Shown here piece after piece: positions 20,938 through 46,318 of a DNA stretch of 46,318 nt (the stretch's first letter is position 1; every line of letters starts with the position of its first letter). Made by a program: the position numbers and the translations under genes. The DNA is from an uncultured Clostridia bacterium (GTDB lineage: Bacteria; Bacillota; Clostridia; Oscillospirales; Acutalibacteraceae): positions 1 through 46,318 of the forward strand of contig CAMJHI010000001.1 of the NCBI GenBank assembly GCA_946405475.1, given 5' to 3'. The notes below the pieces were generated by a model. The model was not told where the DNA came from, ran no database searches, and was given only the letters and a program-made list of their open reading frames with translations.

Positions 20938-22251
20938 ATGGCGGCCTTCTGTCAGGCGTTGATGTGGAACCCGTTGTTTCTGGGGCTGTTTCTGTTTACG
21001 GGCGCTTTTTTCACGCTGCGCTCGCGCTGTTTCGTGTTCCGCCGCCCGCTGACGGTGCTGCGCGCGACGTTCGGGCAGATGCTTCGCCCAAACAAGGGCG
21101 GCATCTCGCCTTTCCGGGCGCTGAGCTGCTCGCTGGCGGCGTGCCTGGGCACGGGCAACATCGTGGGCGTGGCGAGCGCGCTGCTGCTTGGCGGCGCGGG
21201 CAGCGTGTTCTGGATGGTGCTTTCCGCTCTGCTCGGTATGGCCACCGCCTGTGCGGAAAACACGCTCGGCATCCTCTACCGCAAAAAAGACGAAACCGGC
21301 GCGTGGTCGGGCGGCTCGATGGCCTACATCGAAGCGGCGTTCGGCAGCCGTAAGGTCGCCTCGTTTTTTGCGCTTTGCTGTGTGGCGGTTTCACTGGGCA
21401 TGGGCTGCATGGCGCAGGTCAACGCCGCCGCACAGGCAATCCGGGAACAGCGGCCGGTTTCGCCGCTCGTTTGCGGGCTTGTGTTTGCCGCGCTGGCGGC
21501 GCCGGTCATTTTCGGCGGCGCGAAGCGCATCACCGCGCTGACGGAAAAGCTGATCCCGCCGCTGTGCGTCCTGTTTTTGCTGGCCTGCTGCGCCGTGCTG
21601 GTCAAATGCCGCGCCGAAGTGCTGCCGAGCCTTCGGCTGATCCTGCGGCAGGCGTTTACCCTGCGCAGCGCTGGGGCGGGGCTGACGGGCTTCACCTTGG
21701 CGCAGGCGATCCGCGTCGGCGTGGCGCGGGGCGTGTTTTCCAACGAGGCGGGACTCGGCTCCGCGCCGCTCATCCACGCCGCGGCCGAAGCGGCTTCGCC
21801 GTTTCAGCAGGGGCTCTGGGGCAGCGTCGAGGTGTTTCTCGACACGGTGCTTCTGGGCGCGGTCACAGCGCTGGTGTTTTTATGTTCCGGCGCGGCGCAG
21901 GCAGCCAAAACGCCGACCGAGATGACCGTGCTGGCGTTTTCCGCTGTGTTCGGGCGATTCGGCGGGACGTTCGTCAGCGTGACGCTCGCCGTGTTCGCGT
22001 TCGCCACGCTCGCCGGCTGGGCGTGCTACGGCGAAAAGGGCGCGGTGTATTGCTTCGGCAGGCGGAGCACGCTCCCCTACCGGCTCTCGTTTCTGGCGTG
22101 CGTCGTGCTGGGCGCGTGCGTCAAAGCCGAAGCCGTCTGGGCGCTGGCGGACGTATGCAACGCGCTCATGGCGCTGCCCAACCTGACCGCGCTGCTGTTT
22201 TTGCGGGAAGAGATCACGGAGCAAATGAAAAGGCCCCGTTTGCCAATCTGA
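20938..22251 (+). CDS. alanine/glycine:cation symporter (AGCS) family transporter
   Basis: ISPFRALSCSLAACLGTGNIVGVASALLLGGAGSVFWM is the AGCS signature, and the protein is multi-pass. Start uncertain: ATG at 20938 follows a GGTGAT SD, while the ORF track begins at GTG 20923. Confidence 0.88.
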   Translation: MAAFCQALMWNPLFLGLFLFTGAFFTLRSRCFVFRRPLTVLRATFGQMLRPNKGGISPFRALSCSLAACLGTGNIVGVASALLLGGAGSVFWMVLSALLGMATACAENTLGILYRKKDETGAWSGGSMAYIEAAFGSRKVASFFALCCVAVSLGMGCMAQVNAAAQAIREQRPVSPLVCGLVFAALAAPVIFGGAKRITALTEKLIPPLCVLFLLACCAVLVKCRAEVLPSLRLILRQAFTLRSAGAGLTGFTLAQAIRVGVARGVFSNEAGLGSAPLIHAAAEAASPFQQGLWGSVEVFLDTVLLGAVTALVFLCSGAAQAAKTPTEMTVLAFSAVFGRFGGTFVSVTLAVFAFATLAGWACYGEKGAVYCFGRRSTLPYRLSFLACVVLGACVKAEAVWALADVCNALMALPNLTALLFLREEITEQMKRPRLPI

Positions 22252-22268
22252 CAAACGGGGCCGATCAT

Positions 22269-22435
22269 TAGGTAACCACTGATTCAATCGCAGGCACGCA
22301 TCTTGACGGAGTATTTTTCGCCATATTTCACAAAAATACTCGTTAATGCAACCAGCATTGCCTGCGTTTTTTGCTTCATCTGACGAAAAATCTTCTCGCC
22401 AATCTGCATACCCCGATTGAATCAGCGGTTACTTA
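22269..22435 (-). repeat. MITE-like TIR-bounded repeat, copy 1 (diverged; inverted relative to copies 2 and 3)
   Basis: Terminal inverted repeats GTAACCACTGATTCAATCG (22272-22290) and CGATTGAATCAGCGGTTAC (22414-22432) match 18/19. TA lies on both flanks. The reverse complement aligns with 38203..38370 and 45471..45637. Confidence 0.85.
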
Positions 22436-22442
22436 GGTTTGA

Positions 22443-38041: not shown

Positions 38042-38165
38042 TATTTTGTTTAAGAAAGTCAAAAAAGCCACTCATCCGTCTGCTCCCATGAAAACAGAGA
38101 CAGCAAACGGCGCAGCCCCGCAGGACTGCACCGTTTCATACGCTTCTTGATAAAAGAACTGCGTT

Positions 38166-38202
38166 TAGGAAACGCTGATTCAATCAGAGTGTGCGAGGGA
38201 GC
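38166..38202 (+). repeat. solo duplicated left terminus of the MITE-like repeat
   Basis: TAGGAAACGCTGATTCAATCAGAGTGTGCGAGGGAGC, in tandem with the left end of copy 2. In sequence it matches the copy 3 terminus (C at the position where copy 2 has A). Confidence 0.85.
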
Positions 38203-38370
38203 TAGGGAAACGCTGATTAAATCAGAGTGTGCGAGGGAGCGAGAGATTTTTTCGTCAGATTGTGCAAAAAAGCCGCCGCTTTGCTGACGCAAAACAAGGA
38301 TTTTTGGTGCAATATGACGGAAAATGATCCGCTCCCTCGTGCGCTTGTGATTTATTCAGTGTTTCCTTTA
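38203..38370 (+). repeat. MITE-like TIR-bounded repeat, copy 2
   Basis: Differs from 45474..45634 at 3 positions by eye. The imperfect roughly 37-nt terminal inverted arms include a perfect CGAGGGAGCG/CGCTCCCTCG pairing. The right end overlaps the ntpD TAA stop codon. Confidence 0.9.
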
Positions 38371-43527: not shown

Positions 43528-45444
43528 TTATTGGTTGACCGCAACGGTGCGGAACGGCTTGCCGCTGCCTTCAAAGCAACGGCTGAACATTTCATAAAAC
43601 TCAAGGCGCAGCGCCTGAATGCCCGTGAGCAGGCCCTCCAGCGCGATGACGAGCACGTTGCCCAGAATGATCACGACAATGTTTTCGCTTTCGCCCGCCA
43701 ACGAGAAGACCACCATCATCATGCCCGCGTGCACCAGCACGAACGCGCCCACGCGCAGGAACGAAACGGTGTTGCTGAAATAGCTGAGCACGTATTCGAG
43801 CATTTCAAACACGTTTTGCAGCAAAAAGTCCGTTACGCTGTCGGGCTTGCGTTCCGGCTCATGATCCACCAGCGCGATGAGCAGCTCCTTGAAGAACAGG
43901 ATCACGGCGCACACGATGATGACCGGCACGCACACGGCGTTGGGGATGAGGCGCGGACCGTTCATGAACGCGACCGCTAAATTGACCAGCGACAGATAAA
44001 GCAGGATGCCGGCGACGCCGTTGTTGCTGAACAGCGCTTCCCCGATTTTTTTCTCGCGCAGGCTGGACACGACGTTGAGCAGCATGGACACGGCCACCAG
44101 CCCCACGCCGATGGCAATGGCAAACAGCAGAACGGTGTTGATGCTGTCCATGACCTCCAGCGGTTTTCCGCTCAGCCCCACCGCGTGATACAGCGGGTCG
44201 AGCAGATGCTCATAACCGAAAAACGACCCGAACACCAGCCCGAAGCACATGGACGACACGCCGCAGGGAATGAGGATCTTGCCCAGCGCCATCTTTTTGA
44301 GCTTCCACATCAGAAAGCCCGCGAGCATCAGCACGAAGCCCTGACCCAGATCGCCGAACATCATGCCGAAGATGACAGTATAGGTGACGGCGACAAAGGC
44401 GGTGATATCCAGCGACCCGTAATCCGGCAGACCGTACATTTCCACGTAGTATTCAAACGGCCGGAACAGGAAAAAGTTTTTGAGCTTGGTGGGCGGCACG
44501 TGCTTGTCGGTTTTGTTGGGCGCGCTCACGTCGAGCGAAACGCCCTTCAGGCCGGAGACGCATTGGCTGAAGTACTCCACCTGCCGCGCCGGTACCCAGC
44601 CCACGCAGTAAAACTCATTGTTGTGCCGCGCGGCGTAACGGCGCATGGCGTTGCTTTCGTTTTTGAGGCACAGGCGGGAATACAGCTCGTTGAGCCGCTC
44701 GCTGTTATCTTCCGCCAGTCGGCTCAGCTCCAGATCGAGCTGCTCGATCTGCTGCTTGAGGATCGTCACGTTTTCTTCGATGGCGGCAATGATCTCTTCC
44801 ACCGTGCCCCAGGCGTTGTTGATGACGAGCTGCTCAAAATAGAGCGAGGCAAAGATCGCGTCGACGTCGTCGATTTTTTCACGCGGGGCGCAGTAAACGC
44901 CCCAGTAGTGCAGATCGTCCGACGAGCAGGGCGTGAACAGCAGATAAGGGTTGTTTTCGTAAGCGCTGAGCTTGGGGTAGCAATCCTTCGGGATGCTGCC
45001 GAAGCGCACCACAAGAAACTCGCAGGCGAGAAGATCGTCCACGCGGACGTCCAGCCCTGTAAAGTGAGATATCTTGTCAATATAGTCTTCACATTCCTGC
45101 TTTTGGTCGAGCAGGGCCTTTCGCTTGACGGAATCCTGTTCGATGCGGTTTTTCAAGCCGGTCAGGTATTCCTGCATGGTTTCGTCATCGAGCTGCTGTA
45201 AAGCCAAATCACTTTCCACCCGGTCAAGCGTCAGACCGCCCAGACGGGCGACCTCCTCCACCGATTCGATCAGCGGCGCCACGTCGTTTTCGCCGCCGAC
45301 CGCCGTATAGCCCAGCGACGCCGACAGATATTCCAGCGCCGGCTCCGGGTGATAGACCATGCTGCCCGCCGCCCGCGCCGAGAAGTTATTGAGCTGCTCC
45401 ATCGGGCCGGTCGCGCGCACGAGCTTCATTTTTTCAATCGCCAA
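43528..45444 (-). CDS. ntpI: V-type ATP synthase subunit I
   Basis: 638 aa. TTG start 6 nt after a GAGGTGA SD. Soluble coiled-coil N-terminal half and a multi-TM C-terminal half ending ...LRLEFYEMFSRCFEGSGKPF. Confidence 0.92.
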   Translation of the reverse strand: MAIEKMKLVRATGPMEQLNNFSARAAGSMVYHPEPALEYLSASLGYTAVGGENDVAPLIESVEEVARLGGLTLDRVESDLALQQLDDETMQEYLTGLKNRIEQDSVKRKALLDQKQECEDYIDKISHFTGLDVRVDDLLACEFLVVRFGSIPKDCYPKLSAYENNPYLLFTPCSSDDLHYWGVYCAPREKIDDVDAIFASLYFEQLVINNAWGTVEEIIAAIEENVTILKQQIEQLDLELSRLAEDNSERLNELYSRLCLKNESNAMRRYAARHNNEFYCVGWVPARQVEYFSQCVSGLKGVSLDVSAPNKTDKHVPPTKLKNFFLFRPFEYYVEMYGLPDYGSLDITAFVAVTYTVIFGMMFGDLGQGFVLMLAGFLMWKLKKMALGKILIPCGVSSMCFGLVFGSFFGYEHLLDPLYHAVGLSGKPLEVMDSINTVLLFAIAIGVGLVAVSMLLNVVSSLREKKIGEALFSNNGVAGILLYLSLVNLAVAFMNGPRLIPNAVCVPVIIVCAVILFFKELLIALVDHEPERKPDSVTDFLLQNVFEMLEYVLSYFSNTVSFLRVGAFVLVHAGMMMVVFSLAGESENIVVIILGNVLVIALEGLLTGIQALRLEFYEMFSRCFEGSGKPFRTVAVNQ

Positions 45445-45470
45445 AAAGCATCACCTCGCTGTCAAAACAC

Positions 45471-45637
45471 TAAGGGAACGCTGATTCAATCAGAGTGTGC
45501 GAGGGAGCGAGAGATTTTTTCGTCAGATTGTGCAAAAAAGCCGCCGCTTTGCTGACGCAAAACAAGGATTTTTGGTGCAATATGACGGAAAAAGATCCGC
45601 TCCCTCGTGCGCTTGTGATTTATTCAGTGTTTCCTTA
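45471..45637 (+). repeat. MITE-like TIR-bounded repeat, copy 3 (inside the ntp operon)
   Basis: Lies between the ntpC stop codon (45635-45637) and the ntpI start codon (45444). About 98% identical to copy 2. Arms at 45473-45509 and 45598-45635. TA lies on both flanks. Confidence 0.9.
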
Positions 45638-46318
45638 AATACAATAGATATATCGATTGATCTGTTCGGGAGTCGCGTGACAGCGCACCCCCTCAAAGAT
45701 GTTGCACACGTCGTTGATTTCAAGCTCACGCAGCTTGACGAAGCACCACAGCGTCTGCGCGGCGTCGTTGGCATAGCGCATGGCCTTTTGCAGCCGCCGG
45801 GCGATCATGCGCATGGCGCAGGCCTGCGCGTCTTCACCGTGGAACATGGCGGCGTAGGGCGTCTGCTCCACCTGCCGCACCAGCTCCTCGGTCGTTTCAG
45901 CGGCCGCGATCGCGTTGAGCTGCCGCGGGGTCAGCAGCGTGAAATCCGGCTGAATGAAGCGGCGCAGGGTCGATTCGTCGGCGCCGGTGAGGCGCTTGAC
46001 ACGATAAAGAGAAAGCAGCATGCGGATATCGTTTTCATACCTTGCCAGCTCCAGCAAAGCGGCGGCCTGTTTTCTGCCGCAATCCTTCTTGACCGCTTTC
46101 ACCAGCCGCCGGTTGCAGAACGCCTGCACGTGCGCTTCGGTAAAAATCAGGTTTTCACGTGCGAACCCATCCTGCTGCGTTGAGCCGAACAGCGTGCGGT
46201 AGTCGGTTTCAGCCAGACAGTCCAGCACCTCCGGCCACGTCTGCGCCTTCATCAGCCGCACCAGATCGAGCTGCGAAAACCGTTCAAAGCTCAAAGGCAT
46301 GAGCGCCACGTATTCCTC
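45635..46318 (-). CDS. ntpC: V-type ATP synthase subunit C (d/AC39 family), 5' end outside the window
   Basis: The reading frame is open to the window edge. The C-terminal region ...LSLYRVKRL...LRELEINDVCNIFEGVRCH fits the AC39/subunit C family and the operon context. Confidence 0.8.
   Translation of the reverse strand, partial: EEYVALMPLSFERFSQLDLVRLMKAQTWPEVLDCLAETDYRTLFGSTQQDGFARENLIFTEAHVQAFCNRRLVKAVKKDCGRKQAAALLELARYENDIRMLLSLYRVKRLTGADESTLRRFIQPDFTLLTPRQLNAIAAAETTEELVRQVEQTPYAAMFHGEDAQACAMRMIARRLQKAMRYANDAAQTLWCFVKLRELEINDVCNIFEGVRCHATPEQINRYIYCI

Follow-up and report, generated by a model that had tools for sequence, protein, structure and literature searches.

The 161-bp repeat in the ntpC–ntpI spacer of the V-type ATPase operon of the window, by which term we mean the whole 46,318-nt stretch analyzed here, is very probably a non-coding miniature transposon of the IS5 type, which element targets the tetranucleotide YTAR and was recently inserted on the stop codon of ntpC. 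The repeat displays what is expected of a MITE: it is short and non-coding, has terminal inverted repeats (TIRs), is flanked by a target duplication at a site exhibiting presence/absence polymorphism, and occurs as dispersed copies. An earlier note on this DNA had described a mobile, non-autonomous, TIR-bounded element located on a stop codon, which description is corroborated by empty sites in relatives of 99% and 91% identity. The IS630/Tc1-mariner-style class proposed in that note was in turn not sustained, the target duplication being the 4-bp YTAR and the termini those of IS5-family elements whose transposases match NCBIfam NF033581.

The operon lies on the minus strand at the right-hand end of the window, whose G+C content is 59.3% and in which no tRNA or tmRNA was detected. 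A repeat search of the window recovered direct copies of 167 nt at 38202–38368 and 45470–45636 with 98% identity, thus confirming the location claimed for the repeat in the ntpC–ntpI spacer, along with an inverted match at 22367–22436 of about 74% complementarity. We accordingly distinguish three 161-bp copies: copy A (45474–45634), on the plus strand, that being its better-folding or "top" strand, and supported by the repeat search, folding, and the empty sites of six related loci; copy B (38206–38366, plus strand), in the 3' untranslated region downstream from ntpD; and copy C (22272–22432), between convergent genes and with the minus strand as its better-folding one. With the ends so refined, 3 of the 161 positions distinguish A from B, the same number of differences as was counted earlier, and copy C—the third, inverted copy already reported—is about 70% identical to both. 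Given these orientations, the V-ATPase mRNA carries the complement of the copy A top strand. The TIRs of copy A, both read on the plus strand, are GGGAACGCTGATTCAATC on the left (45474–45491), which 18-nt terminus is common to the family and to full-length IS5-family elements, and GATTTATTCAGTGTTTCC on the right (45617–45634), the same conserved family terminus. The arms of about 37 nt containing CGAGGGAGCG and CGCTCCCTCG that had been recognized before are indeed present, but their description understated the symmetry, because the entire element constitutes one long hairpin. The repeat as such greatly exceeds chance expectation.

The left target-site duplication of copy A (45470–45473), CTAA on the plus strand and TTAG on the gene strand, equals the single copy found in the empty site, while the right one (45635–45638), TTAA on the plus strand, is one position off the left copy and includes the stop codon of the partial ntpC gene. 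That stop codon, TAA at 45637–45635 of the minus strand, directly abuts copy A, and the coordinates also agree with a spacer of 190 bp, both as previously stated. Three other features had gone unremarked. First, copy B abuts the ntpD stop in the same manner: its right duplication (38367–38370), TTTA on the plus strand and TAAA on the gene strand, includes the ntpD stop codon TAA at 38370–38368. Second, on the left side of copy B the left arm recurs as a further 35-nt stretch (38168–38202, plus strand) followed by TAG, which stretch carries the A-type variant GATTCAATC and is a partial tandem duplication that is missing from the relative L121; the original left duplication of copy B, a TTTA matching the one on the right, is found on the far side of this extra arm at 38164–38167. 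Third, the flanking duplication has 4 bp, not 2; around copy C it consists of a perfect direct repeat of TTAG at 22268–22271 and 22433–22436.

An exact look-up of the NtpI sequence of the window returned no match on record, and a homology search with NtpI plus the look-up of the encoding contigs provided six related loci. In the closest of these, L120, which matches the window with 99% identity in NtpI and 98.4% in the flanking DNA, the junction reads TGT ATT TAG TGCTTTGACAGCGAGGTGATGC TTTTTGG, with a spacer of 25 bp and without the element; in the window the same junction reads TGT ATT TAA, then the element (GGAAACACTG...CAGCGTTCCC), then TTAG TGTTTTGACAGCGAGGTG. The five relatives of 91% identity (L121–L125) are also empty at this position, with spacers of 17–32 bp, so that empty sites, for which a search in relatives had been suggested, exist in all six loci. 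The real empty site has TAG precisely where a conceptual excision had been expected to leave an in-frame TAG and an unchanged protein. After ntpD, in turn, L121 contains copy B with a perfect TAAA duplication and no extra arm, and L125 is devoid of copy B. Two additional copies, each with 98% identity to A and B, are located at unrelated sites in the metagenome contigs L170 and L171, the former having both ends present and a TTAG duplication. These nearly identical copies at unrelated sites, together with the empty sites, show that the A/B lineage transposed recently. As judged from the sequence comparisons, copy B is older than copy A, which arose very recently within the young lineage that comprises both. 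That the empty strains instead represent precise deletions of an ancestral element is unlikely since the 91% relatives are empty as well. This difference in presence between strains with 99%-identical NtpI marks recent transposase activity and is usable for strain typing.

In order to find further copies in other genomes, as had also been suggested, species-representative genomes were scanned with a pattern constructed from both termini, which scan led to at least 119 loci (L001–L119); from these plus the window we extracted at least 128 copies. Most loci among the matches listed belong to Dialister, with at least 10–17 loci in a single Dialister genome, and the further hosts among those matches are Ruminococcus, Oscillospiraceae, Acutalibacteraceae, "Ruminiclostridium", Agathobacter, and Fusicatenibacter; related ends were also seen on a few elements from Gallionella, Mariprofundus, and a Chthoniobacteraceae MAG. 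Two subfamilies can be recognized: a Dialister-type of 148 bp (77 copies among the matches listed) and a Clostridia-type of 150–160 bp (42 copies among the matches listed, with A, B, and C included). The interiors of the two are unalignable, the common part being some 18–25 nt at each end, in which the 18-nt terminus GGAAnCnCTGATTMAATC is conserved in 128 copies among the matches listed. There are, moreover, 43-bp "mini" derivatives consisting of the two termini, which share a common deletion junction at different sites, as well as a 90-bp form and a 255-bp form (L033, 2737–2992). Ends that stay constant around a changing cargo are the hallmark of elements recognized in trans by a transposase. 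Within the alignment of 28 Clostridia-type copies no small reading frame is conserved, indels breaking the frame. No Rfam covariance model matched the window, where the interval 45400–45700 gave nothing beyond microRNA noise (E about 1), nor did any match 10 loci carrying both subfamilies under either gathering or E-value thresholds, which outcome agrees with the earlier note, whose author recognized the element as none of the described families; a full-text literature search likewise retrieved no paper describing the present family. The family is therefore large, but apparently undescribed as judged by Rfam and the full-text literature.

The folding of these elements deserves separate consideration. 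The plus strand of copy A folds at −89.7 kcal/mol (z = −10.8, with 0 of 200 shuffles as good) versus −67.6 kcal/mol (z = −7.2) for the minus or mRNA strand, and copy C in the equivalent orientation gave −83.3 versus −58.2 kcal/mol. In the 28 Clostridia-type copies, compensatory double changes occurred in 34 of the 55 predicted pairs; 95.8% of the cells were paired, versus 82.3% in shuffles; and the covariation score of 0.426 contrasted with a shuffled value of 0.170, was reached by 0 of 500 shuffles, and lay beyond slid controls of 0.06–0.10. The consensus folds of the favored versus the other strand were −61.6 versus −20.4 kcal/mol for those 28 copies, −53.9 versus −18.5 kcal/mol for 38 unique Clostridia-type copies, and −60.0 versus −35.7 kcal/mol for 65 unique Dialister-type copies; every copy folds better on one and the same sequence strand, with the pairwise BLAST orientations amounting to 6874 "+" versus 4 "−". 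We counted substitution events by parsimony on neighbor-joining trees, restricting the counts to pairs common to the structures of both strands, and observed 18 changes from Watson–Crick to G.U against 3 from Watson–Crick to A.C in the Clostridia-type (p = 0.0015) and 31 against 15 in the Dialister-type (p = 0.026), which figures are to be read in the knowledge that copies sharing an alignment lack independence and that the trees are based on about 150 nt. The G.U excess drew on C>T as well as on A>G changes, and changes keeping the favored strand paired were 2–6 times commoner than the reverse. When fold-back pairs were counted more crudely, from a purine/pyrimidine alignment, G.U was not in excess in the Dialister-type and the singletons were symmetric; we judged the pairing used there to be partly out of register, with 9–12 columns being mostly non-pairs, and replaced this count by the structure-based, tree-aware counts. 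Since the two counts disagree, the strand bias has to be viewed with caution.

A plain selfish-DNA picture does not predict an interior unlike that of the insertion sequences that we fetched, or a covarying hairpin with a strand bias. In one possible reading the interior, which compensatory substitutions maintain in both subfamilies, would be more than filler. The hairpin might have a further function tied to one strand, whether in the form of RNA or of single-stranded DNA, which function would be added to the MITE explanation rather than replace it; the roles possible for it are those of an RNase III substrate, a stabilizer of mRNA ends, a small-RNA precursor, or a fold-back joining the ends of the element. 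The covariation beyond all shuffles in the Clostridia-type copies, the stronger top-strand consensus fold in both subfamilies despite their unrelated interiors, and the excess of G.U over A.C events speak for such a function; but the 43-bp minis have spread to many sites without any interior, which part is thus not needed for mobility, and a scan of all the copies disclosed no conserved sigma-70-like promoter on the favored strand, a weak sigma-70-like site occurring on the other strand in 16 of 65 Dialister-type copies. In addition, the orientation with respect to the upstream gene is nearly random at 43:30, which ratio, like that of 13:5 for stop-codon landings, is not significant; the symmetry of the singletons in the cruder count and the dependence among the copies weigh in the same direction; and an arm-to-arm templated repair could mimic compensation. 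On balance we regard the added function as possible, though improbable, and consider it rather doubtful that selection acts, in the proliferating lineages, on a single-stranded form (RNA or DNA) of the favored strand. If that were nonetheless true, this would be an IS5-type MITE family whose life cycle includes a phase as structured RNA or as a single strand, or else one with an RNA function at the level of the host. In the course of this examination an AAGGAG(G) Shine–Dalgarno-like sequence followed by a frame of 16–18 codons on the favored strand was also considered and was rejected, since the starts differ and indels break the frame.

To return to the MITE itself, its target duplication of 4 bp with the consensus YTAR was deduced from 124 copies among the matches listed and from about 15 filled/empty comparisons. 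The flanking 4-mers were identical in 60 of the 124 copies versus 15.4 expected (a maximum of 32 being attained in 2000 permutations); position 1 matched between the flanks in 86 copies and position 4 in 96, the expectation being 56 for either; position 2 was T in 105–111 and position 3 was A in 97–108 of them. In the filled/empty comparisons the 4-mer (CTAA, TTAG, TTAA, or CTTG) was present once in the empty and twice in the filled site. About half of the copies have non-identical flanking 4-mers, copy A with its CTAA/TTAA among them, which proportion fits the 5–15% divergence of most copies when acting over eight duplicated positions.

If, alternatively, the repeat were a TA-targeting MITE of the IS630/Tc1-mariner style, it would have generated a 2-bp TA duplication in the manner of RUP or Correia elements. 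TA duplications are linked with Correia, ERIC, and RUP elements, the last of which are also linked with a parent of the IS630 type. The junction of copy A taken alone is compatible with that possibility, for the empty ATT-TA-GTG and the filled ATT-TA-[A..T]-TA-GTG are interconverted with no mutation being needed, so that the earlier deduction was a reasonable one; and its observation of TA at both ends can be extended to nearly every end of the family. What fails is the reading of that TA as the whole duplication, because the bases outside it co-vary between the flanks across the family, with the 86 and 96 matches given above. Furthermore, TTAG...TTAG and CTAA...CTAA are direct, not inverted, repeats; certain duplications, such as CTTG/CTTG and the TAAA/TAAA of copy B in L121, lack the central TA; and, within an IS630 search that was non-exhaustive, all the full-length elements recovered with such ends code for transposases of the IS5 family. 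We thus consider an IS630-style origin to be highly improbable.

The latter elements were encountered by several routes. When plasmids were searched by blastn with the terminus, full-length elements bounded by identical ends came to light: in Caballeronia plasmid p3 an element of 1210 bp (L155) reads GGAAACGCTGATTAATGAG...CTCATTAATCAGTGTTTCC between two CTAA flanks, and pBVIE04 of Burkholderia vietnamiensis contains a full-length element (L153) with the same termini and CTAG flanks. A scan of viral contigs for the terminus yielded two others, L130, with 1213 bp and a TTAA duplication, and L141, with 1263 bp and a TTAG duplication. By a homology search and contig look-up, the insertion sequences carrying the proteins P0128 and P0184 were found to have the same termini with YTAR-type duplications, and a tblastn against plasmids revealed in Subdoligranulum variabile (Oscillospiraceae) a 1068-bp copy with those termini and ATAA flanks. 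The transposases of L130, L141, L153, and L155 have 328–333 amino acids, score 301–359 bits on NCBIfam NF033581 ("IS5 family transposase", cut-off 140), and also carry the Pfam domains DDE_Tnp_1 and DUF772; the L130 transposase is about 46% identical to that of Escherichia coli IS5. The full-length insertion sequence with the same termini that had been sought accordingly exists, though in other genomes and within the IS5 family, not IS630. In the window and in L001–L125, a tblastn with three IS5 transposases was empty, which result upholds the earlier statement that the window has no transposase and on which basis we consider the element as non-autonomous; and, when termini paired at 0.8–4 kb were sought in the at least 119 genome loci, no full-length insertion sequence emerged, the apparent pairs being neighboring MITEs.

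IS5 itself targets 5'-YTAR-3' and duplicates those 4 bp (PMC5009759). The present element resembles IS5 and its group in the 4-bp YTAR duplication and in termini starting with GGAA, and IS5-group relatives having its exact 18-nt termini encode NF033581 transposases. From E. coli IS5 the element differs in having 161 bp, no transposase, and an unrelated hairpin interior, which interior was not derived from any insertion sequence examined; its termini match those of the canonical E. coli IS5 (GGAAGGTGCGAAYAAG) only modestly, at about 8–9 of 16 positions, or roughly half of them, the canonical IS5 starting with GGAAGGTGCGAA (GGAAGG) and being flanked by CTAA. Considering the termini and duplications, the parentage very probably lies in the IS5 group of the IS5 family and not in IS630. 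In the mechanism that we propose, an IS5-type DDE transposase encoded elsewhere would move the element in trans by way of its 18-nt TIRs, inserting it at YTAR and duplicating the 4 bp in the process; the cognate parent insertion sequence would then be expected to end in GGAAnCnCTGATT and to have YTAR flanks.

This target specificity bears directly on the position of the element. Because YTAR contains TAA or TAG, and because such AT-rich tetramers are scarce at 59% G+C, stop codons are natural targets. Copies A and B are both stop-codon landings, and a stop codon overlaps the duplication in 26 of 120 copies among the matches listed, where stops were counted for open frames of at least 100 codons, these being raw ORFs of which some are spurious in G+C-rich genomes. 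The protein remains unchanged since the target duplication regenerates the stop. Copy A landed on the ntpC stop at TTAG, of which the upstream duplicate now reads TTAA, so that the stop changed from TAG to TAA. A YTAR-targeting transposase that hits TAA and TAG stops in G+C-rich genomes while leaving the proteins intact explains harmless insertions within operons.

With respect to the operon, the insertion stretches the ntpC–ntpI spacer from 25 to 190 nt. The ntpI gene, whose product has 638 amino acids and in whose relatives Pfam V_ATPase_I is found, conserves its translation signals (45442–45457, minus strand): the RBS GAGGTG (45452–45457) lies 7 nt upstream from the TTG start, which occupies 45442–45444 and begins at 45444, the sequence being the same in the empty-site strain. 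Both signals are intact 16 nt past copy A plus its duplication, and the RBS is predicted to be unpaired in the fold of the mRNA strand. Consensus-based scans for promoters and terminators around A and B furnished nothing above the shuffle expectation; there was one terminator-like site versus 0.7 expected, this being a weak one inside the element with only 3 G–C pairs. The insertion is likely to remove any stop/start coupling between ntpC and ntpI, and the polycistronic mRNA likely gains a hairpin of about −68 kcal/mol, according to the folding model, directly after the ntpC stop, which hairpin, by analogy with other systems, could be an RNase III substrate or modify mRNA stability. Since it is polymorphic between near-identical strains, copy A likely represents a tolerated selfish insertion and not an adaptation.

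The opposite postulation, that the sequence provides the V-ATPase operon with a regulatory RNA of its own, for instance an attenuator or a processing site conserved at ntpC–ntpI, would be in line with the strong hairpin of −67.6 kcal/mol on the mRNA strand and with the two copies in the same orientation within one operon. The junctions of 17–32 bp without the element in the related loci, the strain with 99%-identical NtpI included, are at odds with that idea, as are the occurrence of the same sequence at unrelated loci in many genera, the missing promoter-like site, and the terminator-like sites at the level of shuffles; we therefore give it next to no credence. The filled strain (the window) and the empty strain (the ENA ERZ27280420 contig) offer a natural experiment on the effect of a hairpin in a co-translated V-ATPase operon.

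Long imperfect palindromes with a strand-biased fold, as seen here, are typical of elements handled as single-stranded DNA, and the REP/RAYT and IS200/IS605-type PATE elements among them insert beside a fixed motif with no target duplication; that our repeat should be one of these single-strand-transposing palindromes instead of a DDE-type MITE is exceedingly improbable in view of the target 4-mer present once in empty and twice in filled sites and of termini that are those of DDE-type IS5 elements. Integron attC sites have the cores RYYYAAC ... GTTRRRY within a cassette array; this candidate was rejected, as the ends GGGAAC/GTTTCC misfit those cores and the context is that of a V-ATPase operon with no cassette array.

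The element works as other bacterial MITEs do and is otherwise ordinary. BrickBuilt, MITEPgRS (Porphyromonas gingivalis), and ATR (Neisseria meningitidis, with ISNme1 as the proposed parent) are MITEs derived from the IS5 family (PMC4596501), and the present elements are similar to them in being non-autonomous, intergenic, and multi-copy, with an IS5-family parent recognized by common TIRs (PMC4596501). Those three have GAGAC-type termini, variable or unclear duplications, and Bacteroidota and Neisseria as hosts, whereas termini of the GGAAAC type and a clean duplication of YTAR characterize our family, whose hosts are Clostridia and Negativicutes. The Correia elements of Neisseria, the ERIC of enterobacteria, and the RUP of pneumococcus form transcribed hairpins that RNase III can cleave or that influence mRNA levels (PMC10969869); they resemble our repeat as imperfect palindromes of 100–170 bp situated in operons and at 3' ends, although the latter has no sequence in common with them, a 4-bp duplication, and an IS5-type parent. 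Correia and ERIC provide the best functional analogy for copy A. The added interest of this family resides in its breadth in gut Firmicutes, in the mechanism of landing on stop codons, and in the strand-biased covarying hairpin, which last feature could go beyond the routine biology of mobile elements. The repeat also accounts for many puzzling intergenic palindromes of 150–170 bp in gut Clostridia (Oscillospiraceae, Ruminococcus, Acutalibacteraceae) and in Dialister.

The element family, whose 161-bp MITE occurs three times in the window, also includes members of other sizes. Among these are "mini" elements of approximately 43 bp (L015 406–448, L036 2816–2858, L048 7769–7811, L105 4932–4974, and L113 at 5932, among others), which are built from the two termini only, share one common internal deletion junction, and lie at different loci, each with YTAR-like flanks; this deletion derivative has apparently spread in its own right. 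The family termini likewise enclose different interiors in a longer element of 255 bp (L033 2737–2992) and in a shorter one of 90 bp (L032 3536–3624), and adjacent or nested copies are also present (e.g., L091 4557–4837).

For many of the Dialister copies (e.g., L009 7232–7390, L051 2859–3017, L085 4579–4737, and L086 2030–2188) the flanking sequence itself recurs at many other loci, which recurrence indicates that the MITE was inserted there into another dispersed repeat family. At L036, short tandem units (CTAGGGA/TAGTCCC) were observed near the MITE site.

Outside the Firmicutes, elements of 135–150 bp whose termini are related (GCTGATTAAATC) and whose flanks contain TA were found in Gallionella (L010 3597–3731, L014 7518–7652, L044 1368–1502, and L119 1693–1832), where fold strength was about equal on both strands, as well as in Mariprofundus (L072 58–206), in Chthoniobacteraceae (L004 3082–3231), and on a Nitrosomonas plasmid (L154 2504–2646). 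The Burkholderia vietnamiensis plasmid pBVIE04 carries a lone terminus, CTAA GGAATCGCTGATTAAATCAGTG (L153 2501–2530), which sequence is 80 bp away from a complete IS5-family element and adjoins a toluene/phenol hydroxylase gene that appears truncated.

Within the window, an additional left arm of 35 nt (38168–38202), followed by TAG, separates copy B, the copy after ntpD, from its original TTTA duplication, the whole feature spanning 38164–38205. The orthologous copy B of the 91% relative (L121) lacks this arm. The extra arm has the variant GATTCAATC, as in copy A at the ntpC stop, and copy B itself has GATTAAATC; the presence of the copy-A-type variant suggests that the arm arose by slippage or by unequal exchange between copies.

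Directly before the inverted copy C, and between two convergent reading frames, is a G+C-rich hairpin (GGCCCCGTTTG...CAAACGGGGCC; 22233–22262), which has the appearance of the upstream gene's native terminator. Copy C itself is positioned between this hairpin and the opposing gene's stop codon.

In the window, ntpC ends with the stop codon TAA (45635–45637), compared to TAG in the empty-site strain of 99% NtpI identity (L120 2409–2411), which change is located within one of the two duplicated 4-mers; in the 91% relative L121 the stop is TGA.

In the homology search with the window NtpI, many homologues from related Clostridia were of ~940 aa (e.g., P0010, P0015, and P0018) versus ~640 aa, and the alignments to the former covered only 84% of the query's own length, which length and coverage together suggest an extended or fused subunit I.
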